From Candidatus Omnitrophota bacterium (GTDB lineage: Bacteria > Omnitrophota > Gorgyraeia > Gygaellales > Profunditerraquicolaceae): a DNA stretch of 64,000 bases. The notes beneath the pieces are model-generated. The model saw nothing but the letters and a program-made list of their open reading frames with translations, had not been told where the DNA came from and ran no database searches. The stretch is from contig JALOQK010000001.1 in the NCBI GenBank assembly GCA_025453395.1, forward strand, positions 10,244 through 74,243, written 5' to 3'. The first letter of the stretch is position 1; every line of letters begins with the position of its first letter. Made by a program: the position numbers and the translations under genes. Below are positions 1,195 through 54,279 of this stretch, piece after piece.

Positions 1195-2184
1195 CTACCT
1201 TATGATCTTCCATTCTTTTTTCGCTGAAATCATTTTACGGCATAATGTTATATCTTGCTCGGTAAATAAAGAAACCTCTTTTCGCGCAGGAAAATCTTCC
1301 AACATTATTCCCAGCGCCTCGGCTGCCCAATACCTTGCAGGCAAAAGTATTGTATCGTCTGACTCGTACAGCGGCCCCTCATCACTATTTAAGTACTTCG
1401 CCAAAACAGGAATTACCTCTGGTTGGCGTATATATTGCAGGCGGCTAAATAAGACGCTATATCTCATCATCTTGTCTTTCTCCTGCTCTACTAATTGGAT
1501 ACACCGTATTATATCCTCTTTGCTTCCCATGCGCGCCCGTGCCCTGCGCGCAGCCCAGCTAGTTGTTCCGTACCAACTACCGGCATGTTCTTTTTTCTCA
1601 TATTGACGTTCGTCTTCAAGAAGATTTTTCAATAACGACAGTATCGATTTTATATCTGCCACGCCGCAAATAAGTATAATATTATGAAAATCTCTACTGG
1701 AATCTGATTTCGCGTAATATGATAAAAAATCATTCTCCAGCCACTTCTTTGTATCTCTAGAAAAATCTGATGCGGTGAAATCTAAAAGACACTTAGCTAC
1801 ATGCGGTTGCACAAGAGGAGAAGAATCTGCCAGCGATCTGGTAAGAATACCAACGATACGGATGCGATCAGCCTTGAGGGGAGCGTTATTTACCCCTATT
1901 TGCCACAGCATTGCACAAGAAATATACCTGACGTGTTCTGAATCATCATGCATGTATCGTTCAAGGAAAGGCAATAAATTTACACCATAAGTTTCTACTA
2001 ATTGATTGGTCCTTATTGTAACTGCTTCTCTGTTCTTGGTCTGACTCATCAAAGTTGCAAGCGAGCTTTCCATTTCCGATAAAGAAGTTTCTTTTTCTTG
2101 GGAATAGCCAGAAGCCAGAATAACTGTTCCTGTGAAAACGAAACTGAATAGCAAATAAATCATTACTCTGAATTTTATCGACAT
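1195..2184 (-). CDS. secreted HEAT/PBS-lyase-like repeat protein
   Basis: 329 aa; hydrophobic N-terminal signal/anchor; repeated D-x-x-VR/VQ...A-x-x-L helical motifs typical of HEAT_2 repeats. Confidence 0.45.
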   Translation of the reverse strand: MSIKFRVMIYLLFSFVFTGTVILASGYSQEKETSLSEMESSLATLMSQTKNREAVTIRTNQLVETYGVNLLPFLERYMHDDSEHVRYISCAMLWQIGVNNAPLKADRIRIVGILTRSLADSSPLVQPHVAKCLLDFTASDFSRDTKKWLENDFLSYYAKSDSSRDFHNIILICGVADIKSILSLLKNLLEDERQYEKKEHAGSWYGTTSWAARRARARMGSKEDIIRCIQLVEQEKDKMMRYSVLFSRLQYIRQPEVIPVLAKYLNSDEGPLYESDDTILLPARYWAAEALGIMLEDFPARKEVSLFTEQDITLCRKMISAKKEWKIIR

Positions 2185-2363
2185 AAGTATCTAGTCTTAA
2201 AAGAATCACCCATTTTTTGCTCTCACAATAAAGGGGACGATTCTATTTATTCCATTATCAGGAATCATAGAAACGCCCCCTTTTGGTTGTGCTCATCACA
2301 GAAACTATATTATGGCTCGACAGAGCCCTTATTTAAGGTACGCCGCCGCATTCGCTGGGCTTA

Positions 2364-2406
2364 CTCCGGCTCGTCAGAGCCTCGCCGGAGTCCGTTTTTC
2401 TTTTTT
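2364..2406 (+). terminator. plus-strand hairpin plus T-run (ctccggc...gccggag tccgtttttctttttt)
   Basis: 7-bp GC-rich stem followed by a T-tract. No plus-strand ORF lies upstream, which suggests a small plus-strand transcript within the repeat. Confidence 0.35.
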
Positions 2407-2436
2407 AAAGGTACAGCGGCGCATTCGTTAGGATTA

Positions 2437-2479
2437 CTCCGGCTCGTCAGAGCCTCGCCGGAGTCCGTTTTTCTTTTTC
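2437..2479 (+). terminator. second copy of the plus-strand hairpin plus T-run
   Basis: Exact tandem duplicate of the 2364-2406 structure. Confidence 0.35.
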
Positions 2480-2487
2480 TATATGTT

Positions 2488-2517
2488 GCGAGAAATTATC
2501 TCCAGATAATTTCTCGC
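2488..2517. repeat. perfect 14-bp-arm palindrome (gcgagaaattatct cc agataatttctcgc) 16 nt past the tRNA-Ser(GCT) 3' end
   Basis: Perfect inverted repeat. It is nested inside a longer imperfect IR (ccgtttttctt...aagaaaaacgg). A near-identical palindrome lies at 32372-32399 beside tRNA-Ser(CGA). Confidence 0.6.
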
Positions 2518-2533
2518 ATTAAGGAAGAAAAAC

Positions 2534-2621
2534 GGAGAGGCTGGGATTTGAACCCAGGGACCCAGTTTCCCAGGTCAACTCATTAGCAGTGAGTTGCTTT
2601 CGACCACTCAGCCACCTCTCC
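2534..2621 (-). tRNA. tRNA-Ser (anticodon GCT)
   Basis: Manual fold. Acceptor GGAGAGG/CCTCTCC+G; D-arm GTGGCTGAGTGGTCGAAAGC; anticodon stem-loop ACTCA-CTGCTAA-TGAGT gives GCT; long variable arm; T-loop GGTTCAAATCC. Confidence 0.8.
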
Positions 2622-2623
2622 TT

Positions 2624-2744
2624 GAGCACAAAAATCTTTTATCCAGCGAAACTTCGCGAAGCGAAGTAAGAGCACAAAAATCTTTTATCCAGCGAAACTT
2701 CGCGAAGCGAAGTAAGAGCACAAAAATCTTTTATCTATCTCACC
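2624..2744. repeat. 2.6 copies of a 46-bp tandem repeat directly 5' of tRNA-Ser(GCT)
   Basis: Unit gagcacaaaaatcttttatccagcgaaacttcgcgaagcgaagtaa. Copies abut with no spacers. The same unit, with one substitution, is repeated at 32506-32684 upstream of tRNA-Ser(CGA). Confidence 0.7.
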
Positions 2745-2775
2745 TTGGAATAAAGGATTGCCAAGTGCGCATTTG

Positions 2776-3528
2776 CTATGCAGACTTTACCAAAATATCC
2801 AATTCCTGCTGGAATGATTGCTCGCTAATGCGCGCGTCAAAGAACATCGTAGCCTGAGCATTCAACCAGGTATCTTTAATCCTTCCGATATCCCGCTTTT
2901 GATGAATACCAGAATCATCAAAGTTAGCGTCTGAATACAGCAAAATCGAAGTATCCTGATTCTTGGATTTCTTTAGCGCAAGCATAAACTGTCCCGCGTC
3001 CTGCGTTACAAGATTAAGATGGACAATAAGCAGATTATATTTAAATTTATTGACCTCTTCCCAGAAAAGCCTCTCTTCATTAACCGGGCTGATCACGTAA
3101 TTATATTTATGCAAAGCAAGCGATACCCGGTCCACCAAAGAGGTATTGTCTGTCAATACCAGCGCCTTGGTCTGAAGTAAAGACGTAACCCGATTCACCA
3201 ACATCCCCGCATCACAAGGTTTGTCCAGAAAATCATCAACCCCAAAAACCTCAAAAGTATCCTTCATCCTGTTCTTAGCTGTAAGCATGACAACCTTGAT
3301 CCCGCGGGTAGCCAGATCCTGGCGGATTTTCTTAAACAAAGTAAACCCGTCCATTACCGGCATAATATGGTCCAAAATTATCAAATCCGGCTTCTGTCTC
3401 TGGATCTTATTCCAGGCCTCTTGTCCATCTGAAGCAACATCAACAGAAAACCCCTCAGACTCAAAACGAGCCTTTAGCACTTTCTGCACATCAACTTCAT
3501 CATCAACAACCATTATTTTCTTATTCAT
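2776..3528 (-). CDS. response regulator: receiver domain plus C-terminal receiver-like domain lacking the phospho-Asp
   Basis: N-terminal MNKKIMVVDDE...DLIILDHIMP...VVMLTA...DKP receiver. The C-terminal half aligns with the C-terminal domain of the 5896-7026 product (KALVLTD.../...LLIVHLN...) and has no Asp at the phosphorylation site. ATG at 3528 is preferred over the upstream extension. Confidence 0.7.
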   Translation of the reverse strand: MNKKIMVVDDEVDVQKVLKARFESEGFSVDVASDGQEAWNKIQRQKPDLIILDHIMPVMDGFTLFKKIRQDLATRGIKVVMLTAKNRMKDTFEVFGVDDFLDKPCDAGMLVNRVTSLLQTKALVLTDNTSLVDRVSLALHKYNYVISPVNEERLFWEEVNKFKYNLLIVHLNLVTQDAGQFMLALKKSKNQDTSILLYSDANFDDSGIHQKRDIGRIKDTWLNAQATMFFDARISEQSFQQELDILVKSA

Positions 3529-3548
3529 TTGACCTTTCCTTTTAGAAA

Positions 3549-4013
3549 TTATTGATTTTGCGCGCGCTTCTTGCGGAAGAATTCTGTCAAAAGACCAGCG
3601 CAATCTTCTTTTAAGACGCCGCCTTGCGCCTTTATGCGATGATTCAATTTTTTACTTGCGGCGATATTAAACACCGAGCCGCAGGCGCCGGTTTTAGGGT
3701 CGGCCGCGCCAAAAAATACATTTTTTACCCTGGCTAAGACAAGCGCTCCGGCGCACATACTGCAAGGTTCAATTGTAACATATAGCGCTGCGCCATTCAA
3801 CCACTTCTGCTGCAGATAATTTGTTGCGCTTGTTAAAGCGATCATCTCGGCGTGCGCGGTAGGATCTTTGAGGCGCTCAACCTGGTTATGTGCGCGGGAA
3901 ATTATCTTCCCCTCATGCACAATCACGCAGCCAACCGGAACCTCATCCTCTTCAAAGGCTTCTCTGGCCTCTTTCAAGGCCTCAAGCATGTAAAATTCAT
4001 CTAATTTCTTCAT
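3549..4013 (-). CDS. tadA: tRNA-specific adenosine-34 deaminase
   Basis: 154 aa; HAEMIAL...PCSMCAGAL zinc-binding CDA signature. Confidence 0.85.
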   Translation of the reverse strand: MKKLDEFYMLEALKEAREAFEEDEVPVGCVIVHEGKIISRAHNQVERLKDPTAHAEMIALTSATNYLQQKWLNGAALYVTIEPCSMCAGALVLARVKNVFFGAADPKTGACGSVFNIAASKKLNHRIKAQGGVLKEDCAGLLTEFFRKKRAQNQ

Positions 4014-4199
4014 GAAAGCTAAAAATTAAAAGCGTAAAACGAAAAACCACATCGTAAAATTCAAAATTTTTAATTTTAAATTATAGCTTTGCGTTTTTAG
4101 TTTTGCGCTTTTAGCTTTAAAAGCGCGCCCAGCCCTTCGACTCGTCCGCCAAAATGCGGCGTCCTCGCTCAGGACGGGCGTTGACTTGCAACAAATATA

Positions 4200-4273
4200 C
4201 GCGCCCAGCAGGAGTTGAACCTGCAACAACTTGCTCCGTAGGCAAGTGCTCTATCCAATTGAGCTATGGGCGC
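4200..4273 (-). tRNA. tRNA-Arg (anticodon ACG)
   Basis: Manual fold. Acceptor GCGCCCA/TGGGCGC+G; anticodon stem-loop CTTGC-CTACGGA-GCAAG gives ACG; T-loop GGTTCAACTCC. Confidence 0.8.
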
Positions 4274-4318
4274 ATAGTAAATGCGCGCTTGAGCCTGCCG
4301 GCAGGCAGGCAATACCGC
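4274..4318 (-). promoter_or_regulatory. conserved 5' leader/promoter element shared by both tRNA-Arg genes
   Basis: atagtaaatgcgcgcttgagcctgccggcaggcaggcaataccgc recurs at 48549-48590 with 2-3 changes. It contains the 14-bp palindrome gcctgccggcaggc and a gcgcat/atgcgc inverted repeat overlapping the tRNA 5' end. Confidence 0.4.
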
Positions 4319-4463
4319 ATAAGCGCAAGGTGCGCAAAATTTGTATGGTCGCACAAAAGAGTTTTTATTATAACCTATTTTATCGCTTATTCAAGGAGAT
4401 TGTTTTATTGCTACCCGGAATTGTTTCATAATCTTATGCGCTGCATTGGTTTAGCTAAAGCGT

Positions 4464-4712
4464 CTACTCTTTTATTTCCTCCAGTTCCTTGGCGCGCTGG
4501 GCCTGGATGCCTTCAATCTTGCTCTTGGTGTCATTAACAATGGATTTATAACTTGTGGTGCTTATGCCCTGCTCGTTAAGGGCTTTTTGAGTTTGCGTAT
4601 CGGTAATAACCGAGCCCTTCTTAAAATATTTATTCATCAGCTGAAAGTATAAAAACAAAACTATAACCGTAACAATCAATATCTCTATTAAAGCAAAACC
4701 TTTTTTAAGCAT
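4464..4712 (-). CDS. prepilin-type N-terminal cleavage/methylation domain protein (short type IV pilin or pseudopilin)
   Basis: MLKKG|FALIEILIV: Gly(-1), Phe(+1), Glu(+5) and a hydrophobic helix; 82 aa. Confidence 0.7.
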   Translation of the reverse strand: MLKKGFALIEILIVTVIVLFLYFQLMNKYFKKGSVITDTQTQKALNEQGISTTSYKSIVNDTKSKIEGIQAQRAKELEEIKE

Positions 4713-4720
4713 CCTGCCTC

Positions 4721-5896
4721 CTACTTATTATCTGCGATCTGCTTAATGTAATTTATCGGAACGGCAAAATTTACATTTTGCGAGAAAAGAAACGAAGCTA
4801 AAGTCGTAATCCCCACTACTTCCCCGTATTCATTCAAGACCGGCCCGCCGCTAGACCCCGGAGAAACCGGCGCGGTCATCTGCAAAAGTTTCATTTTATC
4901 ATTTGAGCGTATCGCGCTTATCACCCCTGTTGAAACCGACCGCTCAAAACCTGAAGGATTTCCCAAAACCACAATATCCTGACCGTTCACCAGTCGGTCT
5001 GAATCTCCGGCAAAAAGAACCGGTAGATTTTCCGCCTTGATCTTAATCAAAGCTATGTCCAGATCCGGTACCCCCTTGATAAAATACGCCTCTTTATAGG
5101 TCTTATCCCCGATTTTTACTTCGACTTGCGCCGCCGATTCTACCACGTGGAAATTGGTCGCGATCACTCCGTCGCCTGAAACCACAAACCCGCTTCCCAA
5201 ACCAAGCCGCGTTCCGTATTTATTCTTAGTGGTAATCGTGGCCACCGCAGGCATGCATTTCTGAGAGATGTCTGTGGAACTCATCTTTTTTCTTTTTCTG
5301 CGGCTTAAAAAACTTAATTTAAAATTACCTATCTCCTGCATGGAGGCGCGCTTAAGCAAAACCCCCTTCTTGGGTTTATTCACCATGGCAATAATACTTT
5401 CAAACGGATTTCGCGCCTGGTCTTTATTGTCATCTTTATAACACTGCAGGGTGTAGGCGGTAAATAACGAAATAAAAATAATGCTTAAGATTACTTTGGT
5501 TACCTTCTTGAAACGCGCGCCCGCCCAAAGATTGATCATCCCCAATGGCGAGAGAGGCGGAATAAGGGTAAAGAAAACAAACCGCTTGCGAAAATACCAT
5601 TTCAAGTTCTTTTCATTCTTATCGCGCAGGAGGTTTGAAACAATCACCATCACAAACCACGATACGATCAGACTGCCGTGAAAAATAACTATTCCTAAAA
5701 GATTGTTCCTGCCTGCCGCATATCCCAACATGGCATTGCCCCATAAAATAAGCAAAAACCCCAGAATAAGCGGATGGTCCCCCAGGTTAGCGATAAACCA
5801 GTTTTTCGCCTTTTCGGGAGTAGCCCTTTTTATCTTGCGCCGGGAAACCCGAAGATACCTTCTGATTTTATTCTTTTTCTTTTTCTTTTTCATCAT
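4721..5896 (-). CDS. membrane-anchored trypsin-like (S1C/HtrA-type) serine protease with poly-Lys N-terminus
   Basis: The C-terminal domain has GSGFVV...IATNFHVV...GNPSG...GSSGGPV catalytic signatures. The N-terminal half has several TM helices. The start is probably the MMKKKKKK Met pair, overlapping the upstream stop. Confidence 0.7.
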   Translation of the reverse strand: MMKKKKKKNKIRRYLRVSRRKIKRATPEKAKNWFIANLGDHPLILGFLLILWGNAMLGYAAGRNNLLGIVIFHGSLIVSWFVMVIVSNLLRDKNEKNLKWYFRKRFVFFTLIPPLSPLGMINLWAGARFKKVTKVILSIIFISLFTAYTLQCYKDDNKDQARNPFESIIAMVNKPKKGVLLKRASMQEIGNFKLSFLSRRKRKKMSSTDISQKCMPAVATITTKNKYGTRLGLGSGFVVSGDGVIATNFHVVESAAQVEVKIGDKTYKEAYFIKGVPDLDIALIKIKAENLPVLFAGDSDRLVNGQDIVVLGNPSGFERSVSTGVISAIRSNDKMKLLQMTAPVSPGSSGGPVLNEYGEVVGITTLASFLFSQNVNFAVPINYIKQIADNK

Positions 5897-7026
5897 TAGA
5901 GCAGAGTTGGTATCTGTCCGAGGCACTTCTCCACCATCCCCGGGAAATCCTCCTCGGCGACCCTTAAGTCAAAAAAATTATCCGCCTTTGCTTCCAGCCA
6001 CTTGTTAGAGATCTCGCGCAGCACAACAATGTTTCCTGTTTCTGTCCCGGGGGTCTTAGAATTAGAATAAATAATAACCGGGGTATCCTTATTTTTATCT
6101 TTTTTTATAAGCGCTATAAACTGCGCGGGCTCATAATTAACCACAGATGGCACATAAACTACAATGAATTTATATTTAGAAAGCGCTAGATTCTCAAACA
6201 TTTCCTTTTCAGTTTTTACCAAAACCGCTTTACAGCCTCTATCCCAAATATCCTGGCCTATTTTCTTAGCTAATCCGTCGGCATCACAAAGCACAAGCGC
6301 CTTGGGCAAAAGAAGCTCTTTGGCAAGGTCCACAAGCTCTCCCGCGTCAAAGGGTTTAGGCATAAACGCGTCTGCCCCTGCCATTTCAAAAGAATCTTTT
6401 AACGGCCCCCGGGCGGTTAAAACAATTACCGGGATACTTGAGGCGTAGGGGTCGCTTTTAATTATCTTAAAAAATTCATACCCATTCATTACCGGCATCA
6501 TAAAATCAAGTATGATCAGGTCCGGAGATTCAGATTTTACTTTCTCAAGGCCCTCTTGGCCGTTGGTGGCGGTTACCACCGCATAGCGGTTCGCTCTAAA
6601 ACGCACCTCCAGGACTTTTAACAGATCTGCTTCATCATCAATAATAAGCACCTTTTTCCCGCGGATCTCTCCTAAAAACTTACGCGCCTTGCCCGCGACT
6701 ATCCCCGGAAGAAAAGGCTTCCTAAAAGAATCATTGATCTGCCCCTCTTCAAAAAGCTCCATCATGCTGCCGTACTCACTGGCGACAATAATCGGAATAT
6801 CCTTAGTTTCATGGTCTTTTTTAAGTTTGGCCGCGAGCTGATAACCATTAATCTTAGGCAAAATCACGTCCATTATAATCAGATTCGGAACTTGCGTCTT
6901 AGCTTTCATAAACCCGTCTTCACCGTCAAAGGCCACAACCACATCATAACGCTGGGCCTCAAGCTCTTTGCGCATCAACTCCAAGACTTCCACATCATCA
7001 TCAACAATGAGTATCTTCTTTGCCAT
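5896..7026 (-). CDS. tandem-receiver response regulator (REC-REC) with C-terminal pseudo-receiver domain
   Basis: Two canonical receivers (ILIVDDD...LIIMDVILP...K; VLIIDDE...LIILDFMMP...K). The third CheY-like domain has the Asp replaced (KFIVVYVP). Confidence 0.75.
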   Translation of the reverse strand: MAKKILIVDDDVEVLELMRKELEAQRYDVVVAFDGEDGFMKAKTQVPNLIIMDVILPKINGYQLAAKLKKDHETKDIPIIVASEYGSMMELFEEGQINDSFRKPFLPGIVAGKARKFLGEIRGKKVLIIDDEADLLKVLEVRFRANRYAVVTATNGQEGLEKVKSESPDLIILDFMMPVMNGYEFFKIIKSDPYASSIPVIVLTARGPLKDSFEMAGADAFMPKPFDAGELVDLAKELLLPKALVLCDADGLAKKIGQDIWDRGCKAVLVKTEKEMFENLALSKYKFIVVYVPSVVNYEPAQFIALIKKDKNKDTPVIIYSNSKTPGTETGNIVVLREISNKWLEAKADNFFDLRVAEEDFPGMVEKCLGQIPTLL

Positions 7027-7031
7027 AATAC

Positions 7032-7406
7032 TTATTCACTTATCCTTTTTTGTATTTCACCTAAAAGATCATTTGGCTCATAAGGCTTGGCAATAAAAAA
7101 ATTACCTCCGGATTCCCTGCCGATATGCTCCTCGTCATTTTTCGTCACCAGGCAAGTCAGGAATATAACCGGAATATTCTTAGTTCCAGGATCCTGCTTT
7201 AATGCTGCCGCCACGTCCGCGCCGCTAATATCCGGCATCATAAGGTCCAAAAGGATTAAATCCGGTTTTTCTTTCTTGGCCAAGAATATAGCGTCCTCTC
7301 CATTATTGGCCTTTAGTACCGCATAGCCGGTTTTTGAAAGCCTTTGATCCAAAACTTTCAAGACATTCTGCTCGTCATCAACTACAAGTATTCTTTTCTG
7401 TGCCAT
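7032..7406 (-). CDS. single-domain response regulator (CheY-like)
   Basis: MAQKRILVVDDE...DLILLDLMMP...IFLT...KP; ATG at 7404-7406. Confidence 0.8.
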   Translation of the reverse strand: MAQKRILVVDDEQNVLKVLDQRLSKTGYAVLKANNGEDAIFLAKKEKPDLILLDLMMPDISGADVAAALKQDPGTKNIPVIFLTCLVTKNDEEHIGRESGGNFFIAKPYEPNDLLGEIQKRISE

Positions 7407-7422
7407 AAAATTATCCCCTTTC

Positions 7423-7791
7423 TTAACTAAGAAATTTTTTCGCCTTATTAACCAATCCTGCAGAATCAAACGGCTTAAGCAAGTAATCATCCGCCTTAAC
7501 CTGTTTTATCTTCTCATCAAGCTGATCCACGCTTGCGGTAAAAATTACCACCTTTATATTCTTTAACTTCTCATCGCTTTTAATTTGCTGACAAACATTG
7601 TACCCGTCTATTATAGGAAGGCGCAAATCCAGAAACATCATGTCTGGAGCAGTCTGCCGGACAAAATCCAAAGCCTGCTGGCCATTAATAGCGGTAAAAA
7701 CTTCGTAGCCGGCCATTTTCAAACGCACTATCGCTACCTTTAACACATCTGGCTCATCATCAACAACAAGTATCCTCTTAGGCATGGTCAT
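7423..7791 (-). CDS. single-domain response regulator (CheY-like)
   Basis: RILVVDDEPD...DMMFLDLRLP...VVIFTAS...LLKPFD. Confidence 0.8.
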   Translation of the reverse strand: MTMPKRILVVDDEPDVLKVAIVRLKMAGYEVFTAINGQQALDFVRQTAPDMMFLDLRLPIIDGYNVCQQIKSDEKLKNIKVVIFTASVDQLDEKIKQVKADDYLLKPFDSAGLVNKAKKFLS

Positions 7792-11086: not shown

Positions 11087-13195
11087 TTATGCCTCTTTCC
11101 TTCTTAAAAGCATCTTTACACGCGCCAAGATTTTATCCGCATCAAAAGGCTTAGTAATATAATCATCTGCTCCGAAATCAAGCCCGGCGATTTCGCTTTC
11201 CTTATCCTGGCGCGCGGTCAAAATTATTACTGGAACAGAAGCAGTCTGAAGACTGGAACGCAATTTCTTCACCGCTTCAAAACCGTTTACCTTAGGCATT
11301 GTTACATCAGAAATAATTAAATCCGGCTTTTGCTTGTACGCTAACTCCACAAGCTCGCCCCCGTCGCGAGCCATGTCCACTTCGTATCCGGCAGCCAAGA
11401 GCCTTCTTTGCAAGACCTGCAAAATATCTTCTTCATCATCAGCAATCAAAATCTTAAAGACCTGCCCGGTTTTCTTGGATTTCTGCGACAACTGCTCCTC
11501 TTGGCTTATTCCGACTACCTTGATTACTTCTTCTAAAGTCGTAACCCCATCAGCTACTTTCTGCATCCCGGATTTTAACAAAGGCACCATACCGCTATTT
11601 TTTGCCTCCTGAAACAGGCTGTCCTCATTGACTTTCTGACTTATTAACTGTTTTAACCTATCATTGATAATAACTAACTCAAATATTCCGGTGCGGCCCA
11701 AATAACCGGAAAAAGCGCATTTTTCACATCCCTTGCCCCTATAAAATTTCGTGATGTTTAATTCCTGAATATAAGGCATTAATTTTTCCTTGATATCAGC
11801 AAGCGGCGCATCTTCGGTTTTACAATGAGGACAGATAATCCTGATCAAACGCTGTGCGATGATTATATTTAACGATGAAGCTATGATATACGGCTGCAGG
11901 CCTATATCTAAAAGCCGGGTCACAGTAGCTATGGCGCTATTAGTGTGCACTGTAGAAAAAACCTGATGGCCGGTCAATGCCGAACGAAAGGCGATATCCG
12001 CGGTATCGCGGTCGCGGATCTCTCCGACCATAATCACATTAGGATCTTGGCGCAGGATATTCCTTAGTCCATTGGCAAAAGTGACATCCTTGGCAAGATT
12101 AACCTGCATTTGATTGACCCCGTCAATAAGGTACTCAATGGGATCTTCTATGGTAATAATATTCTTGGCCTCGGTCTTGACAAAATTCAAGGCCGCGTAA
12201 ATAGTCGTGGTCTTTCCAGAGCCTGTCGGCCCAGTGACTAAATTCATTCCTTGCGGTTTCTTAAGCGTTTCTTTTAACATCTGAACTTCTCTTGTGGAAA
12301 GCCCAATTTGATCTAAAGGTTTTCTTGCTTCCTGCGGATCCAATATCCTGATCGCGATAGACTCTCCGTAAAAAGCAGGCAAAATCGAAACCCTAAGATC
12401 GATCTGTCTATTACCTAAAGTAACCTTGATCCTACCGTCTTGGGGCTTGCGGCTCTCCGCAATATCAAGATGCGCGAGGATCTTGATCCTGGCAGATAAC
12501 GACAAATGAAAATTAATCGGGATCTCAAGTATATTCCTCAAGTCGCCATCCACGCGATAGCGAATAATAGAAATCTTTTCTTTAGGCTCTATGTGGATAT
12601 CTGAGGCGCGCGCCTTGATGGCGTCGGATAAAATAATATTAGCAAGTCTTATTGCCGGAGAATTCTCGTATTTTACAGACACATCAGAATAATCTTCAGG
12701 AACACTGTCCTGAATAAGCTGCAGCTGCTCGGATTCATGAAAATTTTTCAATATGTCATATACCGAATCATCCGAATTATAATGCGTGTCTATTAATTTT
12801 GTTATTTGACTTCTAGCAGCAAAAACAAGCTGCAATTTAACTGCGGGAACGGCCATTTTTATGTCATCGATAGCCAGCACATCCTGCGGGTCGCTTATTG
12901 CCAAGGCTAAATTATCATTTTCTTTGCGCAAAGGAAAAACCCCGTGCCTGCGGGCAATCGCATAGGGAAGAAGCTTTGTTGCGGCTGGATCGATTTTTTC
13001 CTGGGAAATATCTATTATCGGAAGCTTAAAAAATCTCGATGATGCGGCAAGGATATTTTCTTCGCTTATAAAACCCATCTCCACTAATAATTCCTGTATG
13101 GGTTTCTTAGCGCCGATCTGCTTGGTCTTAGCGTCGTTTAATTGACTAGCGGTGATAAGATTTTCGTTGAGCAAGAATTCCGCTAAATTGGGCAT
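11087..13195 (-). CDS. GspE/PilB-family secretion ATPase with GspE_N-like N-domain and fused C-terminal receiver domain
   Basis: 702 aa. N-terminal GspE_N-like region; Walker A GPTGSGKTTT; Asp/His boxes; tetracysteine CPHCK...CEKCAFSG. The last ~120 aa form a canonical receiver (ILIADDEED...LIISDVTMP...ILTARQD...KPFD). Confidence 0.8.
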   Translation of the reverse strand: MPNLAEFLLNENLITASQLNDAKTKQIGAKKPIQELLVEMGFISEENILAASSRFFKLPIIDISQEKIDPAATKLLPYAIARRHGVFPLRKENDNLALAISDPQDVLAIDDIKMAVPAVKLQLVFAARSQITKLIDTHYNSDDSVYDILKNFHESEQLQLIQDSVPEDYSDVSVKYENSPAIRLANIILSDAIKARASDIHIEPKEKISIIRYRVDGDLRNILEIPINFHLSLSARIKILAHLDIAESRKPQDGRIKVTLGNRQIDLRVSILPAFYGESIAIRILDPQEARKPLDQIGLSTREVQMLKETLKKPQGMNLVTGPTGSGKTTTIYAALNFVKTEAKNIITIEDPIEYLIDGVNQMQVNLAKDVTFANGLRNILRQDPNVIMVGEIRDRDTADIAFRSALTGHQVFSTVHTNSAIATVTRLLDIGLQPYIIASSLNIIIAQRLIRIICPHCKTEDAPLADIKEKLMPYIQELNITKFYRGKGCEKCAFSGYLGRTGIFELVIINDRLKQLISQKVNEDSLFQEAKNSGMVPLLKSGMQKVADGVTTLEEVIKVVGISQEEQLSQKSKKTGQVFKILIADDEEDILQVLQRRLLAAGYEVDMARDGGELVELAYKQKPDLIISDVTMPKVNGFEAVKKLRSSLQTASVPVIILTARQDKESEIAGLDFGADDYITKPFDADKILARVKMLLRRKEA

Positions 13196-13196: not shown

Positions 13197-13571
13197 CTAT
13201 GCGGTATTTTTACCTAAAACTTCCCTTATAATGCCAAGAAGCGATTCCCAATCATAAGGTTTTTCAACATAAACCTCTGCGCCTTCTTGTTTGGCGATAT
13301 CCTTGTATTGCGGATCAGACATACCGGATAATATAACAACCGGGATACTCATCGTCTGCGAAGAGAGCTTAAGATTTTTTAAGACAGATATCCCACCGCC
13401 TGAAGGGATCATAAGGTCCAGAATGATCAAATCCGGCCTTTCTTTAATGCTGGAAGAAAGCCCTTGATAAGCATCCAAGGCTGCCAAAACTTGGAAGCCC
13501 GCAGCGTGCAGCCTTTTGGATAAAACAGCATTTACATCAACTTCATCTTCAATGATCAGGATTTTAGCCAT
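13197..13571 (-). CDS. single-domain response regulator (CheY-like)
   Basis: MAKILIIEDE...DLIILDLMIP...VVILSG...EKPYD; stop 2 nt before the GspE-receiver start. Confidence 0.8.
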   Translation of the reverse strand: MAKILIIEDEVDVNAVLSKRLHAAGFQVLAALDAYQGLSSSIKERPDLIILDLMIPSGGGISVLKNLKLSSQTMSIPVVILSGMSDPQYKDIAKQEGAEVYVEKPYDWESLLGIIREVLGKNTA

Positions 13572-13635: not shown

Positions 13636-14499
13636 TTACCTAGAAAATTTCCTCTTACGAACAACCCCACTAGCGCGTTTCTGCCACGGCGGCCTGTTGC
13701 TTGTTGTGCCTTCGCGCTTTACCCATGGCTTGCTTGCTGGAGCGCCTGCACTTTCGCTTCTTTGCCACGGCCTGCGCGCGCCCTCTTTCTTTTGCCACGG
13801 CTTAACCGGGCCTTCGCGTTTCTGCCAAAGGCCGGTTTTATCTTCGGATTTCTGCCAAGGCGGGCGGCTTGTTGCGCCTTCGCGTTTTTGCCACGGGGGC
13901 CTGTTGCTTGTTGTGCCTTCGCGTTTTTGCCACGGGGGCCTGTTGCTTGTTGTGCCTTCGCGTTTTTGCCACGGCCGCGCCTGTCCTTCAGGCGGCTTTT
14001 CTCCTCGATTTTTCTCCCACGGTTTAGAATATGGCGCCTTCTTGCGCCAACGCATGGGATTTTCTTTAAATTTCCTTTCGGGCATAGGTCCGGTAATTCC
14101 TGATTCGGCCCGGCGCATCATAAAACTGCGGGTGCGCCTGCCTTTCTTATATTCACCTGTTCTTTCAAAAGTAAACGCCTTAGGATGCAACTCTTTATGC
14201 TCTGGGCGTTGGTATTCGTGATGCGGCTTCTTTTCTTTCGGAACTTCTCTTTCCGGCTTCTTAGGCAATGCCGGCATGACATTTATGGCTCTTCCTAAAA
14301 TTTCTTTTCCGTTTAACGCCTCAATTGCCCTGCGCGCCTCTTCGTCGTCGGGCATCTCCACAAAACCAAATCCCCGCGAGTGCTTGCCTTTTTTGTCCAT
14401 CACAATCACAATGGAAGAAACTTTTCCATGCGCCATAAATTCCTGATAGACATCTGTCTCTTTCGCGTCAAATGATAAATTCCCTACAAAAATATTCAT
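13636..14499 (-). CDS. RRM-type RNA-binding protein with basic C-terminal tail of PWQKREG(TTSNR) tandem repeats
   Basis: N-terminal RNP-2 (IFVGNL) and RNP-1 (RGFGFVEM) motifs. The tail carries about 9 degenerate copies of R-P-P-W-Q-K-R-E-G-T-T-S-N. Confidence 0.75.
   Translation of the reverse strand: MNIFVGNLSFDAKETDVYQEFMAHGKVSSIVIVMDKKGKHSRGFGFVEMPDDEEARRAIEALNGKEILGRAINVMPALPKKPEREVPKEKKPHHEYQRPEHKELHPKAFTFERTGEYKKGRRTRSFMMRRAESGITGPMPERKFKENPMRWRKKAPYSKPWEKNRGEKPPEGQARPWQKREGTTSNRPPWQKREGTTSNRPPWQKREGATSRPPWQKSEDKTGLWQKREGPVKPWQKKEGARRPWQRSESAGAPASKPWVKREGTTSNRPPWQKRASGVVRKRKFSR
13877..13973. repeat. 39-bp exact tandem repeat (2.5 copies) inside the RRM gene tail
   Basis: ccttcgcgtttttgccacgggggcctgttgcttgttgtg occurs twice exactly and once partially. 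It encodes the PWQKREGTTSNRP units. Confidence 0.8.
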
Positions 14500-24703: not shown

Positions 24704-25960
24704 TTACTTATTAGCTGTTATCTTCCCTGCGAGTTGGCTCTGGTAAGCGTCCAGGGCCGCAGGGAACGGCGAGAGCGTGCGCTTGATCACTCCCTGCACA
24801 ACCGATACTGCCATGCCGTAATTAGTGATAGCCACGCCTGCCTCTTTGGCCTTCTGGATACGAAAAAGCATTTCCCTGCGAGTCAGCATGCAACCTCCGC
24901 AGTGAATGACTAATTTATACTCGCTTAAATTCTCCGGATAATCTTTTCCGGAAGAAACATCAATCTGGATATCCCCTCCTATATATTGGCGCAGCCACCT
25001 GGGGATCTTGACCCTGCCGATATCGTCCTCAATGGCGTGATGACTGCAGGCCTCGGAAATCAAAACCTTATCTTGGGGTTTAAGCTTTTCAATGACTGCC
25101 GCGCCGCGGGCAGCCTCAATCAAATCTCCTTTGTAACGGGAAAAGAGAATGGAAAAAGTCGTGCATTTAACATTAACCGGCGTATCGGCAACCATCTTCA
25201 ACACCACTTGGGAATCACAGACCACAATATCTGGAGGATTTTTTAATTTATCAAGCACTGCGGCGTATTCCCTTTCCTTAACTACCACAACCCCTGAATC
25301 ATTATCCAAGGCATCGCGGATTGCCTGCACCTGCGGCAAGATAAGCCTGCCCTTAGGCGCCTGTAAATCTATCGGAACGATCAAAACCGCCAATCCTGCG
25401 GCAGGAAGAAGGTCTCCAATTAAAGGCGGCGGATTCAGAAATTCATCCGGGCAGACATTAAGGATATGCTCTTTCAAGGCGTTCAGGTATTTATCGCGAT
25501 TGGCAAGGTCCAGGCTGGAACAGGAAATAACCCGCGGCACTTTTATCCCGGAAAGAAATTCCTCATCAGGCGCTTTCAGATCAGTTTTATTCACAACCGC
25601 GATAAGCGGAATTTTTCTTTTTTGGGCCTCTTCAACAACCTGATTCTCATAAGCGTCCCAGTTTCCCGCTTCTGTTAAAAGCACAATCACATCCGAACGG
25701 TCAAAGACCTTGCGGGTTTTCTTAAGCCTTGCCTCGCCCAGAAGCGAGCTGTCATCAAGCCCGGCAGTATCCAGAAACACAACTGGCCCCACCGGCAATA
25801 ATTCCATTGTTTTTTCCACCACATCGGTAGTAGTTCCGGCGATAGAAGATGTGATAGCAATATCCTGCCCGGCAACCAGGTTCAGGAAACTTGATTTGCC
25901 GACATTAGTCCTGCCGAAGATACCAATATGCAAACGCAGTGATTTAGGAGTTTTTTTCAT
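24704..25960 (-). CDS. hydF: [FeFe]-hydrogenase H-cluster maturation GTPase
   Basis: 418 aa; N-terminal GTPase (GRTNVGKSS, DTAG); operonic with the hydG-like gene and the TM1266-like gene. Confidence 0.7.
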   Translation of the reverse strand: MKKTPKSLRLHIGIFGRTNVGKSSFLNLVAGQDIAITSSIAGTTTDVVEKTMELLPVGPVVFLDTAGLDDSSLLGEARLKKTRKVFDRSDVIVLLTEAGNWDAYENQVVEEAQKRKIPLIAVVNKTDLKAPDEEFLSGIKVPRVISCSSLDLANRDKYLNALKEHILNVCPDEFLNPPPLIGDLLPAAGLAVLIVPIDLQAPKGRLILPQVQAIRDALDNDSGVVVVKEREYAAVLDKLKNPPDIVVCDSQVVLKMVADTPVNVKCTTFSILFSRYKGDLIEAARGAAVIEKLKPQDKVLISEACSHHAIEDDIGRVKIPRWLRQYIGGDIQIDVSSGKDYPENLSEYKLVIHCGGCMLTRREMLFRIQKAKEAGVAITNYGMAVSVVQGVIKRTLSPFPAALDAYQSQLAGKITANK

Positions 25961-27350
25961 CTTGTTTGTAGCCTAAAGAAATAAGGTTATACGGATCAAA
26001 TACCTTATCTATCAATTGCTTCCCCAGTTTCTCCTCAAGAAACAAGCGCAGGTCTTCTTTCGCGGATTTTCTGAATTCATCAAGAAGCGCTTGCGCTCTA
26101 TCGTAACCGATATAAGGCAATAAAGCGGTAACAATCGCCGGGCTTCTGTTAAAATACCAGAGGCATTTTTCCGGATTGGCGATTATCCCGGAGGCGTGCG
26201 CGGCAAATATACGGTTTGTATTGATTAAAACATCCAGCGACTCAAGCAATGCCTGAGCAATAGAGGGCATAAACTCATTTATCTGCAGGCTTCCTGAAGA
26301 ACAGGATTGAGTGATAATAAGGTCATTAGCAATAACTTTCATCCCGGCTTGCGCAACTACTTCCAAGATCACCGGATTAATTTTCCCCGGCATAATTGAA
26401 GAGCCGGCTTGCGCTTTGGCTAGAGAAATCTCTCCCAAAAGATTCAACAAGCGCAGGTCATGGGAAATTTTTATTAAATTTGAAGCATGGGCTTTTAATA
26501 TTCCGGAAACCTCCACAAAGCTATCGCTGTTGGCGGTCTGGTCAAGCACTGTCTCGCCTCTTGCCAAGCCAAGGCCGGTCGCCTGGCGCAGGGTTTCTAT
26601 GACTAAGAAAATATAACTGCGCGGCGCGGTTAAACCTGTGCCTACCGCGGTCCCGCCGATATTAACCAAACGCAAGCGCTCTTCGCATTTAAAAGCCCTC
26701 CAGCGGTCGCGGGCAACAGCCTCGCTAAAGGCGCTAAATTCCAAACCCAAAGTTATGGGAACAGCTTCCTGTAATTCGGTCCGGCCGATTTTAACAACCT
26801 TAGCGAATTCCTTTTCTTTTTTCTGAAAAACTCCCTGAAGCCCGGCGATCTGTGCGCTTAATTCCCGGAATTTAAAGATAGCCGCAATCTTTAAAGCTGT
26901 AGGATATGTGTCGTTGGTAGATTGATTGAGATTAACGTCCTGGATCGGATTGACCAAAGTATAATCGCCAATTTTTCCGCCCAAGATTTCAATCGCGCGA
27001 TTAGCCAAAACTTCGTTCACATTCATATTGGTAGATGTTCCGGAGCCGCCTTGCAAAGCATCAACCGGAAAGGATTCAATAAATTTCCCCTCTGCAATTT
27101 CATCGCAAGCCTGAATGATCGCGCCAGCTTTTTGATCATCCAGAAGTTTTAATTCGCGATTTGCCTGGGCGCAGGCTTTTTTCACCAGGCAATAAGCCTT
27201 GATCAAGGAAAAATTTACTTTTTGCCCGGTAAGCGGGAAATTCTCCAGCGCCCTTTGAGTATGGATTCCCCAATAAACACCTGAGGCGATTTTCATTTCA
27301 CCAAGCGAATCTTTTTCTCTGCGATATTCCATATTCACCTTTAAAAACAC
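25944..27350 (-). CDS. aspartate ammonia-lyase / fumarase class II family protein (hydrogenase-maturation-associated AspA-like)
   Basis: 468 aa; GSSIMPGKINP signature; overlaps hydF and hydG by 17 and 10 nt. Confidence 0.75.
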   Translation of the reverse strand: MFLKVNMEYRREKDSLGEMKIASGVYWGIHTQRALENFPLTGQKVNFSLIKAYCLVKKACAQANRELKLLDDQKAGAIIQACDEIAEGKFIESFPVDALQGGSGTSTNMNVNEVLANRAIEILGGKIGDYTLVNPIQDVNLNQSTNDTYPTALKIAAIFKFRELSAQIAGLQGVFQKKEKEFAKVVKIGRTELQEAVPITLGLEFSAFSEAVARDRWRAFKCEERLRLVNIGGTAVGTGLTAPRSYIFLVIETLRQATGLGLARGETVLDQTANSDSFVEVSGILKAHASNLIKISHDLRLLNLLGEISLAKAQAGSSIMPGKINPVILEVVAQAGMKVIANDLIITQSCSSGSLQINEFMPSIAQALLESLDVLINTNRIFAAHASGIIANPEKCLWYFNRSPAIVTALLPYIGYDRAQALLDEFRKSAKEDLRLFLEEKLGKQLIDKVFDPYNLISLGYKQDEKNS

Positions 27351-28849
27351 AAGTCGCGCTCGCCGTTTTTTATCCGGCGGTGATATTCTTTAAAAGAATT
27401 TAAAATACTGGAAGAAAAATCAGCCGGCACCCTTTTTTCAATTTCGGCGATTTCACGGGCAATCAATCCTTCACCCATCTTCCTGGTATCATCGCTTGCA
27501 AAATCTTCCAGCCATTCCTGAAAAGTCAAAACCGCGTTCAATTTACACAAACACCCCTCTTTGCCGCTTTTTAACATACCCATAATATTATCCCCGGTTC
27601 TTCCGCAGCGGTAACCGGCAGTGCAAAAAGAAGTAATATATCCCATTGACGCCAGATCGCAGATCACCTCATCAAGCGAGCGGCTGTCGCCTAAAATAAA
27701 CTGCTGGATATTTTCCTCCTGCGTGTCCCCGCGTTCGCTGTAGGCTCCGATACCGACTTTGGAAGAAGCATCACGCTGGGTGCACATGGCTATAACTTCC
27801 CGCATCACTGAAGGGTTTTCCCTGCAGGTAACAATCATTCCGGCATAAGGTATAGACAGCCTCAACACTGCGACTAATTTCTTAAAATCTTCATCGCTGA
27901 CCAAGTACCCGGTATTTTTGACAAAAGGGGTATTTGCCGCCGGCTCAAGCCTGGGGAAAGACACGGTGTGCGGGCCAATACCAAAAAAACTTTCCAGGTC
28001 GCGGGCATGAGAAAGTAATCCCATTACTTCAAAGCGCCAATCATAAAGCCCAAACAGCGCTCCGATAGCCACATCATCAATTCCGGCTTCCATTGCCCGG
28101 TGCAAACTATAAAGCCGCCAGAGGTAATCGCCTTTTATGGTCTGCGCGGGATGCACCAGGCTATAAGTCTGGCGATGATAAGTCTCCTGAAAGATCTGGA
28201 AAGTCCCTATCCCCGCGGCTTTGACCTGTTTATAATCTGCGATACTCATAGAAGCGGCATTGACATTTACCCTGCGGATAGCCCCCTCGCCGCGGCGGGC
28301 CTTGACTTTTACCGCGTAAATCTGGCGCATTACTTCACAGATATAATCCGCTCCCGACGCAGGATGCTCACCAAAAACCACAATCAGCCTCTTATGCCCC
28401 AGATTTCCAGCAAGCACTTCTGCTTCTTTGCGCACTTCATCAAGGCTTAATCTCCTGCGCTTAATAACCTGATTCTCCCCGCGAAACCCGCAATAGGCGC
28501 AATTATTCACGCACAAGCTTGAGCAGTAAAGCGGCGCGAAAGTCACTATCCGGTTGTCGTAAACTTTTCTTTTGATGCGCGCGGCAGCCTGGAATATCTG
28601 TTCCCATAAATCTTGGCCTTGCACATTAAGCAAAGCCGCAGTTTCCGCCAACTCAAGTGTCTGAACATCCAAAGCTTTCTGGATAATATCCCGTATCTTG
28701 CCAGGGTCAACATTCCGCTTGGCTTCCAACAAACGCGCAATCTGCGGTTCGTCTATAAAACACCTGCCGCCTTTAAGATATTTGGCGTTCTCTTCTTCCC
28801 TGATCACTTCTTTCTTCCAATTCTTAGCTTGTTCCAGAATATTCTGCAT
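27341..28849 (-). CDS. hydG: [FeFe]-hydrogenase maturase HydG (ThiH-like radical SAM tyrosine lyase)
   Basis: 502 aa; CVNNCAYCGF radical-SAM motif; GHKRL; C-terminal extra Cys cluster (CTAGYRC...GCLC). Confidence 0.7.
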   Translation of the reverse strand: MQNILEQAKNWKKEVIREEENAKYLKGGRCFIDEPQIARLLEAKRNVDPGKIRDIIQKALDVQTLELAETAALLNVQGQDLWEQIFQAAARIKRKVYDNRIVTFAPLYCSSLCVNNCAYCGFRGENQVIKRRRLSLDEVRKEAEVLAGNLGHKRLIVVFGEHPASGADYICEVMRQIYAVKVKARRGEGAIRRVNVNAASMSIADYKQVKAAGIGTFQIFQETYHRQTYSLVHPAQTIKGDYLWRLYSLHRAMEAGIDDVAIGALFGLYDWRFEVMGLLSHARDLESFFGIGPHTVSFPRLEPAANTPFVKNTGYLVSDEDFKKLVAVLRLSIPYAGMIVTCRENPSVMREVIAMCTQRDASSKVGIGAYSERGDTQEENIQQFILGDSRSLDEVICDLASMGYITSFCTAGYRCGRTGDNIMGMLKSGKEGCLCKLNAVLTFQEWLEDFASDDTRKMGEGLIAREIAEIEKRVPADFSSSILNSFKEYHRRIKNGERDLCF

Positions 28850-28853
28850 ATTT

Positions 28854-29108
28854 TTAAACCTTAGCCAGGGTACTTTTCACGGTCACGCTCTTAAACATCC
28901 CTAACTTTCCGGTCAGTGCTCCGATTTCATCAGTAGTACCGTCCACGATCAGAGTGATCACATTCACTTTGCGTTCATGATAAGGAAAGCCCATTCTGGC
29001 GATGATGATCTTGCCGAATTCAGTTAAGATTTGATTCACTTTAGGCGCTGCTTCTTCTCTTTTTTTGATGATAACTACTACCGCTCCCAAATGTTTTTCC
29101 ATATCCAT
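28854..29108 (-). CDS. TM1266-like small protein associated with [FeFe]-hydrogenase maturation clusters
   Basis: ~84 aa starting at MDMEKHLGAVVVII. Members of this family typically sit beside hydE/F/G. The longer ORF to 29186 is probably an over-extension. Confidence 0.5.
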   Translation of the reverse strand: MDMEKHLGAVVVIIKKREEAAPKVNQILTEFGKIIIARMGFPYHERKVNVITLIVDGTTDEIGALTGKLGMFKSVTVKSTLAKV

Positions 29109-29269
29109 TCCTTTCTTTTGGTTACTAACAAATAAAAACCCCCGAGCCCTAAAAAAACAAAGCTGGGGGTAAAATTTTATTTTCATTACCCCCTCGGATT
29201 CAGAATACCTCCCTGTTCCTCAGGTATACCTTAATTATAGCACTAAAAGAAATATTGTAAAGCTTCCAG

Positions 29270-34784: not shown

Positions 34785-36239
34785 TTAACCCTTAATTACC
34801 CCTAACGGACGCATCCTGCAGACGCGTTTCGCCAAACCTGCCTCATGCACCACGCGCACCACATCATTCACATCCTTATACGCCGCAGGAGCTTCCTCCA
34901 CAATTGTGTCGCGCCCTGAAGCCTTTACAATTATACCCTTGGATTGCAAATCTTTCAATAGGATATCTTTATTTATTAAACGCAAGGCAGATGTGCGGGA
35001 TTTGACTCTACCCGCGCCATGACAAGCAGAGCCAAAGGTTTCGTCCATGGCTTTTTGCGTGCCGAACAAAAGATATGAATTTCTCCCCATATCACCGGGA
35101 ATAATTACCGGCTGGCCAAACTGGCGGTATTTATCCGGCAAGGCGGGATGCCCCGGGCCAAAGGCGCGGGTGGCGCCCTTTCTATGCACACATAAAGCTT
35201 TCTGCTCTTTTCCAACCATGTGTTTCTCTATTTTAGCGATATTATGCGCCACATCATAAAGCAAACGCATGCCTAATTTCTCCCAAGATTTACTAAAGAC
35301 GCGCGCGAAAACTTCCCGGGACAAATGCATCAAACACTGACGATTCGCCCAAGCGTAATTTGCCGCGCATTTCATTGCTCCTAAATAAGCCTTGCCTTCT
35401 TGAGAGTTAACCGGCGCGCAAGCAAGCTGGCGGTCCGGAACAGTAATGGAATATTTTTGCATGCAACCGACCATTTCTCTGGCATAATCATCGCAGATTT
35501 GATAACCAAACCCCCGCGATCCAGAATGAATCATCACAGTTACCTGCCCCAAACGCAATTCCAGCGCGTCGCAAATTTCGCGGTCATAAAGCTGGTCAAT
35601 TACCTGCACTTCCAAAAAATGATTTCCTGAACCCAATGTCCCGGACTGCGATTGCCCTCGTTTATAGGCCTTCTCTGAGACCATATCAGGAAGCGCGCCT
35701 TGCATACATCCGTTTTCTTCAGTATAAATTAAATCCTCATCTATGCCAAAACCCCTTTTCACCGCCCAACCCGCGCCCTTAAGTAATATTTCTTTTTCTT
35801 CTCTGGCGCTTAAGCGGATATCACCTTCAGAGCCCACCCCTGATGGAATATCAGAAAACAAAGCATAGACTAAAGTTTCGAGTTTATCTTTAACTTCATC
35901 ATAATCAAGGTACGTAGTCAAAAGCCTGATGCCGCAATTTATATCATACCCTACCCCTCCGGGAGAAATAACTCCTGCTTCTTCCGGGTCGGTTGCCGCC
36001 ACCCCTCCGATCGGAAAGCCAAAACCCCAGTGTATATCCGGCATGGCCAAAGACGCTCTAACAATCCCCGGCAAGAACGCCACATTTGCCACCTGTTGGA
36101 CAGCTTTATCCTGCAAAATATCCTTAAGAAGTTTTTCATCCGCGTAAATAATGCCCGGCACGCGCATGCCGCCAGTTTTAGGAACGCGCCAGCGAAAATC
36201 GTCAATTTTCTCTAATTTTATTTCAGACATCAAAGACAA
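34785..36239 (-). CDS. rtcB: RtcB-family RNA 3'-phosphate ligase
   Basis: 484 aa; conserved SGNHFLEVQ, His/Cys metal ligands, C-terminal GRV. Confidence 0.85.
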   Translation of the reverse strand: MSLMSEIKLEKIDDFRWRVPKTGGMRVPGIIYADEKLLKDILQDKAVQQVANVAFLPGIVRASLAMPDIHWGFGFPIGGVAATDPEEAGVISPGGVGYDINCGIRLLTTYLDYDEVKDKLETLVYALFSDIPSGVGSEGDIRLSAREEKEILLKGAGWAVKRGFGIDEDLIYTEENGCMQGALPDMVSEKAYKRGQSQSGTLGSGNHFLEVQVIDQLYDREICDALELRLGQVTVMIHSGSRGFGYQICDDYAREMVGCMQKYSITVPDRQLACAPVNSQEGKAYLGAMKCAANYAWANRQCLMHLSREVFARVFSKSWEKLGMRLLYDVAHNIAKIEKHMVGKEQKALCVHRKGATRAFGPGHPALPDKYRQFGQPVIIPGDMGRNSYLLFGTQKAMDETFGSACHGAGRVKSRTSALRLINKDILLKDLQSKGIIVKASGRDTIVEEAPAAYKDVNDVVRVVHEAGLAKRVCRMRPLGVIKG

Positions 36240-38435: not shown

Positions 38436-38449
38436 GGCATTTCCTTCTT

Positions 38450-50589: not shown

Positions 50590-50592
50590 TGT

Positions 50593-52693: not shown

Positions 52694-52695
52694 AT

Positions 52696-53730: not shown

Positions 53731-53739
53731 GCCCTTATC

Positions 53740-54258: not shown

Positions 54259-54279
54259 GTTTTTATTATTTTTAAAAGA

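Follow-up and report, generated by a model that had tools for sequence, protein, structure and literature searches.

Can the receiving end of a two-component system be part of a filament-assembly motor itself? This question is raised by one gene in a 64,000-nucleotide stretch of DNA from a Candidatus Omnitrophota bacterium (GenBank assembly GCA_025453395.1, contig JALOQK010000001.1, positions 10,244 to 74,243 of the forward strand; hereafter the window), whose product joins a PilB/GspE-class ATPase to a C-terminal receiver (REC) domain. We consider it fairly probable that this protein is a hexameric PilB-type filament-assembly motor gated post-translationally by the two-component system of the same operon. 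Part of this ground is already covered: the sequences are public, a variant with an N-terminal REC has been catalogued, and receiver control of PilB in trans is established. In Synechocystis, phosphorylated PixG (PixG~P) binds PilB1 while PixH serves as a phosphate sink (PMC11181946), and in Xanthomonas the tandem-REC protein DrdR stimulates ATP hydrolysis by PilB and by PilT, both of which it binds (PMC13507683). A C-terminal REC on a PilB/GspE ATPase was not described in the literature searched and is unmentioned in a 2024 review of PilB cofactors. The architectures given by Wang et al. include MshEN-T2SSE-cNMP-binding, GAF-MshEN-T2SSE and REC-MshEN-T2SSE, not MshEN-T2SSE-REC (PMC5013675), and a survey of the Omnitrophota mentions neither PilB nor two-component systems (PMC10066038).

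One reading frame encodes a PilB-like ATPase and a receiver

The original prediction, made from the sequence alone, had described a full GspE core, a GspE_N-like domain of the protein's own at the N-terminus and a canonical phospho-acceptor receiver at the C-terminus. Profile hidden Markov models bear out all three: the Pfam matches to MshEN, T2SSE and Response_reg have E-values far beyond chance, and the C-terminal region lies well above the Response_reg cutoff (Table 1). The core motifs are intact, with Walker A (GPTGSGKT, residues 322-329), Asp box (349-354), Walker B (390-395), His box (409-418) and a tetracysteine site made up of CPHC (455-458) and CEKC (490-493), that is, C455, C458, C490 and C493. 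All five phosphorylation-site residues of the receiver are present, namely D586/D587 (in ADDEED), D630 (in SDVTMP), T660 and K682. The protein ends eight residues past the receiver and has no Pfam match to Trans_reg_C, the winged-helix DNA-binding domain of OmpR/PhoB proteins; therefore, only the type of receiver is common to that family. In an AlphaFold2 model of the whole protein (predicted local distance difference test score, pLDDT, 86.4; predicted template-modelling score, pTM, 0.80), residues 581-701 adopt the canonical (beta-alpha)5 fold after a disordered linker.

The junction between ATPase and receiver contains neither a stop codon nor a frameshift, so that the receiver shares the frame of the ATPase and is not a separate gene, a point on which the original prediction could have fallen. 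The same three-domain protein occurs in 105 other clusters at 90% identity, which argues that the fusion is not an assembly artefact. Given a continuous frame, more than 105 independent clusters of identical architecture drawn from many samples, and over 85 distant ones besides, we reject the notion that an assembly or frameshift error joined two genes; nothing was found in its favour, and its probability is next to nil.

We then asked what kind of ATPase this is. NCBIfam models rank PilB first (TIGR02538, 588.2 bits, residues 4-560) and GspE second (TIGR02533, 555.4 bits), and the PilT model TIGR01420 gives 174 bits against a cutoff of 319. Since the tetracysteine site and the N-terminal domains are present, the protein is predicted to be an assembly ATPase and not a retraction ATPase of the PilT type. 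Its nearest solved relative is Geobacter PilB (5zfr, E 8.9e-134, residues 3-561), followed by Myxococcus PilB and Thermus PilF; the model superposes on Geobacter PilB 5TSG/5TSH with a template-modelling score (TMt) of ~0.92 and a root-mean-square deviation of ~2 Å, and the Foldseek search of the PDB found no solved structure spanning all three domains. Indeed, the protein shares with the type IVa PilB proteins (Geobacter 5TSG/5ZFR, Myxococcus PilB, Thermus PilF) the order MshEN_N, MshEN_C/N1D, N2D, CTD as well as Walker A and B, Asp box, His box and tetracysteine, at ~43% identity. It differs from them in its extra C-terminal receiver, in a degenerate cyclic di-GMP (c-di-GMP) motif, in not lying beside pilC, pilT or pilMNOPQ in this genome region and in scoring below the PilB equivalog cutoff.

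The GspE score is near the PilB score (555 versus 588 bits), as would be expected if the motor were regulated in the same way while serving a type II secretion-like pseudopilus or a DNA-uptake (competence) machine in place of a surface type IV pilus. In one relative (L087), a compact operon runs E-F-pilin-pilin-pilin-large minor pilin, much like a type II secretion or Com layout, and no pilMNOPQ-type genes are called within the 7 kb of L087 shown. We nevertheless hold this alternative to be unlikely, as collinearity over the full length, MshEN_N bundle included, is best with PilB structures and almost every member of the Omnitrophota is reported to have type IVa pili (PMC10066038). It concerns the filament served and not the regulatory logic, and it overlaps the explanation we prefer.

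The fusion is conserved and abundant under generic names

A database entry identical to this protein comes from a Candidatus Omnitrophica metagenome-assembled genome (MAG; 272-kb contig). The next 109 matches, at 48-60% identity, are nearly all full length, carry the same three Pfam domains and come mostly from Omnitrophota, with one from Firestonebacteria and one from Elusimicrobiaceae. An alignment of 106 sequences shows purifying conservation of both halves of the protein: no sequence departs from D587, D630, T660, K328, E392, H410, H417 or the four cysteines, and D586 and K682 each reach at least 90% conservation. The T2SSE core, with its Walker A, Asp box, Walker B and His box invariant across this alignment, places the family in the GspE/PilB class.

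To see how far the architecture extends, we searched 1.84 billion representatives at 50% identity exhaustively, which gave 18,612 relatives at E < 1e-30. The best 150 of these comprise 86 MshEN-T2SSE-REC proteins with a C-terminal REC, 8 with an N-terminal REC and 13 tandem double ATPases; a receiver raises the score and so lifts REC-bearing proteins in the ranking, and the counts therefore speak of abundance, not of frequency. The MshEN-T2SSE-REC architecture is thus abundant in sequence databases, where it goes under generic names; the named members among the distant C-terminal-REC relatives include some from Elusimicrobia and candidate division WOR-3. The original prediction had called such direct control of a hexameric ATPase uncommon. 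That stands for the literature searched and fails in sequence space, where the C-terminal fusion makes up 86 of the best 150 representatives; it fails also because REC-MshEN-T2SSE, with its N-terminal REC, was catalogued in 2016 (PMC5013675, Supplementary Table 4).

The phosphorylation site is kept well beyond the family, with the acceptor Asp present in 80 of 85 distant C-terminal-REC proteins and the Lys and the Thr/Ser in 81 each. This bears on the idea that the domain is a pseudo-receiver, a structural or localisation module that is never phosphorylated. Such domains are known beside pilus and Tad ATPase systems, and the REC of FimX has no phospho-acceptor aspartate (PMC11656802). Here, however, the five phosphorylation-site residues are invariant or nearly so in 106 homologues, D630 is kept in most of the distant representatives just counted and a kinase is encoded in the same operon. 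We therefore reject the idea on residue conservation as highly improbable and effectively excluded.

The catalogued REC-MshEN-T2SSE proteins, of the Geobacter metallireducens Gmet_3473 type, come from beta-, gamma- and deltaproteobacteria (PMC5013675, Supplementary Table 4). They too join a PilB/GspE-class ATPase covalently to a receiver; the catalogue covers their architecture only, and no experimental work on them was found in the literature searched. Their REC precedes MshEN, whereas in our protein it is C-terminal (residues 582-694) and the hosts are Omnitrophota and other candidate phyla. The two types form separate groups among the best 150 representatives, and the fusions probably arose as independent events.

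Other arrangements were seen alongside. A scan of genome contigs gave, among the matches listed, mostly distant, unfused PilB loci and is not a census; these matches include unfused REC-then-PilB or histidine kinase-REC-PilB orders (L009, L018), an N-terminal fusion (L043), an internal fusion (L037) and machine-linked ATPases of Omnitrophota. The internal fusion, from a Rubrobacter sp. MAG (1727-5002 of its locus), is a 1091-residue ATPase with a REC between MshEN repeats (MshEN-MshEN-REC-MshEN-T2SSE), which adds a third location of REC among ATPases of this class. The 13 tandem T2SSE ATPases among the best 150 representatives are ~1000 residues long (P0112, P0118-P0120, P0124, P0125, P0128, P0130 and others). 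In four variants (P0185, P0190, P0198 and P0209; 966-1528 residues), MshEN-T2SSE is followed by a double zinc ribbon, then by REC and lastly by 200-750 residues without annotation.

The receiver is predicted to be of a dimerising type

The nearest solved relatives of the fused receiver in a PDB search are PleD D1 and receivers of the OmpR/PhoB family. Residues 655-699 (beta4 to alpha5) align without gaps with PhoB 78-122, with 24 of 45 positions identical, and are ~60% identical to ArlR; the best 60 PDB matches listed for this segment are all OmpR/PhoB-family receivers, PleD or close kin of that receiver class. An alpha4-beta5-alpha5 face of OmpR/PhoB type is present, marked by GADDY (675-679), R692 and R699, and is conserved in the family. 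Conservation of this face, at ~60% identity, is the hallmark of a subfamily whose receivers dimerise by it upon phosphorylation (PMC2586830). As judged from these residues, the fused receiver is of the OmpR/PhoB/PleD type, a type that dimerises upon phosphorylation. The single-domain receiver encoded directly upstream has no such signature on direct reading of its sequence. The linker between ATPase and receiver varies in length within the family and spans 20-334 residues in distant relatives.

An engineered EpsE-Hcp1 fusion reportedly has stabilised hexamers and raised ATPase activity, a gain that makes C-terminal oligomerisation a plausible control point. Like our protein, that fusion (PDB 4KSR/4KSS; 4ksr is among the PDB matches) carries an oligomerising domain at the C-terminal end of a GspE ATPase. 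It is an artificial construct and constitutively hexameric, whereas a natural REC would respond to a switch and would most likely form dimers.

A regulatory domain at this position is not confined to receivers. In a ranking by core sequence only, the fused family is followed most closely by proteins that lack any fusion and by others that end in a PilZ domain (P0117, P0144, P0148 and P0213). Since close relatives of the core carry PilZ at the same position, the C-terminus can be read as a slot for regulatory input, and that of PilB-like motors is accordingly a predicted modular slot for REC or PilZ. MshE-type and PilZ-fused ATPases thus resemble the fused family in bearing an input domain on the same scaffold, PilZ in the very same slot, and differ in taking c-di-GMP as input instead of phosphorylation. 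Beside these we noted an unfused relative flanked by three small PilZ genes (PilZ-linked loci L005, L006); in L006, pilM, pilO and a secretin gene lie ~5-10 kb from the PilB-like ATPase.

The family alignment shows a degenerate c-di-GMP motif at the N-terminus

An MshE-type c-di-GMP receptor is recognised by tandem RLGxx(L/V/I)(L/V/I)xxG(L/V/I)(L/V/I)xxxxLxxxLxxQ motifs (PMC5013675; motif quoted in PMC10333796). The fused family keeps the 24+5+24 register of these motifs. The Arg at the first position is missing from both motifs in 106 of 106 sequences, Pro stands at position 32 in 100 of the 106, the Gly at position 3 is replaced by I/L/T or Q/H, and the Gln at position 24 of motif II by V/I. 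The motif is, from this alignment, degenerate family-wide, and the domain would not qualify as an MshE-type receptor; gating by c-di-GMP through MshEN was rejected on the same alignment. Wang et al. put the loss of binding in XpsE down to comparable motif changes (PMC5013675). The motif is still near-canonical in two ATPases of Omnitrophota that are machine-linked (L080, L064), though not in others of that kind. In the fused family, phosphorylation seems to have taken the place of c-di-GMP, which many PilB/MshE proteins receive as input through MshEN_N.

The gene lies in a two-component operon

The fused gene belongs to a tightly packed operon, all on the reverse strand, in the order REC, PilB-REC, PAS, histidine kinase, REC, REC, REC-REC (Table 1). 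The HisKA-HATPase_c kinase lies two genes downstream of the fused gene and presumably donates phosphoryl groups to the fused receiver. Its dCache_1 match (36.9 bits) is below the Pfam cutoff of 45, which makes the call of the sensor domain tentative; kinases with dCache_1 are on record at the same position in the relatives L002, L090 and L091, which also have a PAS gene where ours lies, and comparable runs of REC genes occur in L001, L002, L091 and L092. Promoter and terminator scans performed no better than shuffled controls and were set aside. Directly upstream of the operon, in a position not conserved in relatives, is a gene for a bacterial RRM-domain protein of 287 residues with a long basic C-terminal tail of PWQKREGTTSNRP-like repeats, whose DNA holds 2.8 copies of a 39-nt unit.

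Table 1. Coordinates of the fused gene, its domains, its operon and other features of the window
Feature	Coordinates	Strand	Details
PilB/GspE-class ATPase with C-terminal receiver	11087..13195	-	702 aa + stop codon; one uninterrupted frame
MshEN_N four-helix bundle, residues 1-55	13031..13195	-	AlphaFold2 helices 4-10, 16-29, 33-39, 45-56
MshEN_C / T2SSE_N1 subdomain, residues 56-144	12764..13030	-	Pfam PF05157, E 1.8e-21
T2SSE ATPase core (N2D + CTD), residues 177-558	11522..12667	-	PF00437, 443 bits, E 6.4e-133
Linker, residues 559-581	11453..11521	-	Disordered, poorly conserved; pLDDT <50 at 564-577
Receiver domain, residues 582-694	11114..11452	-	Response_reg E 3.9e-29, 101.5 bits (cutoff 30.2)
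Single-domain REC	13197..13571	-	Response_reg E 1.2e-19; TAG stop 1 nt before ATPase start codon
PAS-domain protein, 174 aa	10561..11085	-	PAS_9 E 6.6e-14; start codon 1 nt past ATPase stop
Membrane sensor histidine kinase, 921 aa	7788..10553	-	HAMP, HisKA, HATPase_c above Pfam cutoffs; candidate phosphodonor
REC gene	7423-7791	-	Downstream of kinase
REC gene	7032-7490	-	Downstream of kinase
Tandem REC-REC gene	5896-7026	-	Downstream of kinase
Further REC domain	2776-3603		Counted in the REC total of the operon
RRM-domain protein	13636-14499	-	39-nt repeat at 13867-13974
[FeFe]-hydrogenase set	24704-29186 and 36654-42126	-
Outer-membrane/lipid A block	49786-56625	-
RtcB and archease	34785-36645	-
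Reading frame, 636 aa	46156-48066	-	No Pfam match at E <= 0.01
Reading frame, 332 aa	23704-24702	-	No Pfam match at E <= 0.01

To place this operon among its relatives, we compared the gene contexts of 12 family members, spanning Omnitrophota, Firestonebacteria and Elusimicrobiaceae. A histidine kinase lies within three genes of the fused gene in 9 of the 12 and a single REC directly upstream in 7; two contexts have neither. The Firestonebacteria context reads histidine kinase, REC, PilB-REC and that of Elusimicrobiaceae reads REC, PilB-REC, multi-PAS histidine kinase. In one of the 12, that of the relative P0052 (53% identity), the fused gene overlaps the start of a T2SSF gene (PilC/GspF), which is followed by three prepilin genes with G|FTL[VL]E signals, and this neighbourhood associates members of the family with filament machines. 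The family is therefore linked, in different genomes, both to two-component systems and to a filament machine.

The operon counts seven REC domains on six proteins and one kinase, and across the contexts signalling operons outnumber machine operons by 9 of 12 to 1 of 12. Both ratios would suit a receiver that is a phosphate sink or branch point in a signalling hub with reverse flow, its accessibility set by the nucleotide or engagement state of the ATPase, so that the motor reports filament activity. PilB of M. xanthus has been reported as a signalling protein for exopolysaccharide regulation (PMC5544727), and in pilus chemosensory systems the role of receivers as phosphate sinks is established (PMC11181946). 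Against such a role, the strict conservation of the ATPase catalytic residues and zinc-binding cysteines suggests a working motor, one relative sits in a pilC-prepilin operon and an output domain for such a pathway is not evident within the window. We regard this explanation as rather unlikely, while giving it some weight.

A proposed mechanism and the points against it

In the reading we prefer, the motor would drive extension of a type IV pilus or a type II pseudopilus. The membrane kinase, possibly together with the small PAS protein, would sense a signal and autophosphorylate, and the phosphoryl group would pass to D630 of the receiver, which is tethered to the C-terminus of the ATPase by a flexible linker of ~20 residues. 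Phosphorylation would switch the OmpR/PhoB-like alpha4-beta5-alpha5 face, whereupon receivers of adjacent protomers may pair or come off the ATPase ring, with altered hexamer assembly, ATP turnover or docking on the PilC/GspF platform as the outcome. The single-domain receivers of the operon may compete for phosphoryl groups as sinks or branch points. We infer the phosphotransfer from kinase to REC, the pairing of receivers and the sign of the effect on the motor.

Several findings weigh against this account. No pilC, pilM, secretin or pilin gene was found within the whole 64-kb window, and a machine operon accompanies only 1 of the 12 family contexts. Both equivalog cutoffs are missed, that of PilB (588.2 against 675.65 bits) and that of GspE (555.4 against 630.25 bits); the protein is PilB-like by its profile ranking, yet below the PilB equivalog threshold. 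Other Omnitrophota MAGs encode separate, unfused ATPases (39-41% identity) in ordinary machine operons, and the fused protein may therefore be an accessory paralogue.

The proposed gating has precedents in PixG/PixH, DrdR and PilG/PilH of Pseudomonas, which are likewise phospho-receivers acting on PilB post-translationally, and our operon also encodes single and tandem REC proteins. Those receivers, in contrast, are separate polypeptides, mostly fed by CheA-type kinases, whereas here the receiver lies within the motor and the kinase is of the HisKA type with a membrane sensor region.

We also considered, as a very doubtful extension, that the fused receiver might be a two-way coupling device and not an on/off switch: paired phospho-receivers would select the symmetry state of the PilB hexamer, and the nucleotide or load state of the motor would set the lifetime of phosphorylation. 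If so, the motor would both obey the multi-REC network and report filament engagement to it, a self-contained mechanosensory and chemosensory module in place of c-di-GMP and Chp-type control in host-associated nanobacteria.

Other features of the window

Elsewhere, the window encodes a [FeFe]-hydrogenase set consisting of a HydA-like large subunit, a 1051-residue NuoF-like/GltD-like flavoprotein fusion, a NuoE-like ferredoxin, the maturase HydF, a radical-SAM maturase, a lyase_1 protein and a TM1266-like regulator. Such a set fits the bifurcating hydrogenases that have been described in Omnitrophota. An outer-membrane/lipid A block comprises BamA, OmpH/Skp, LpxD, an LpxC-FabZ fusion (434 residues), LpxA and LpxI, and the RNA ligase RtcB with its archease partner adjoins a seryl-tRNA synthetase. 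Across positions 1-64000 nearly all substantial reading frames are on the reverse strand and GC skew is negative in each 2-kb bin, which suggests one replichore with a strong gene-strand bias.

Meaning of the fusion

The fusion takes its meaning from its context: the sensor-kinase operon, the loss of the MshEN motif, the PilZ-fused relatives and the relative linked to pilC and prepilins. Input by phosphorylation goes together, in this family, with a lost c-di-GMP motif at the N-terminus. The contacts of PilG, PixG and DrdR with PilB are transient and occur between separate proteins; covalent fusion with an adjacent kinase fixes the stoichiometry and names the partners. With that kinase conserved beside the fused gene, receiver control of PilB motors becomes directly testable in vitro, and the fused family offers a tractable model for such control of pilus and secretion motors. 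The pili of Omnitrophota are thought to attach these bacteria to host cells. If pilus extension is indeed gated by a signal, this would be relevant to the way in which these uncultivated nanobacteria locate their hosts and interact with them.

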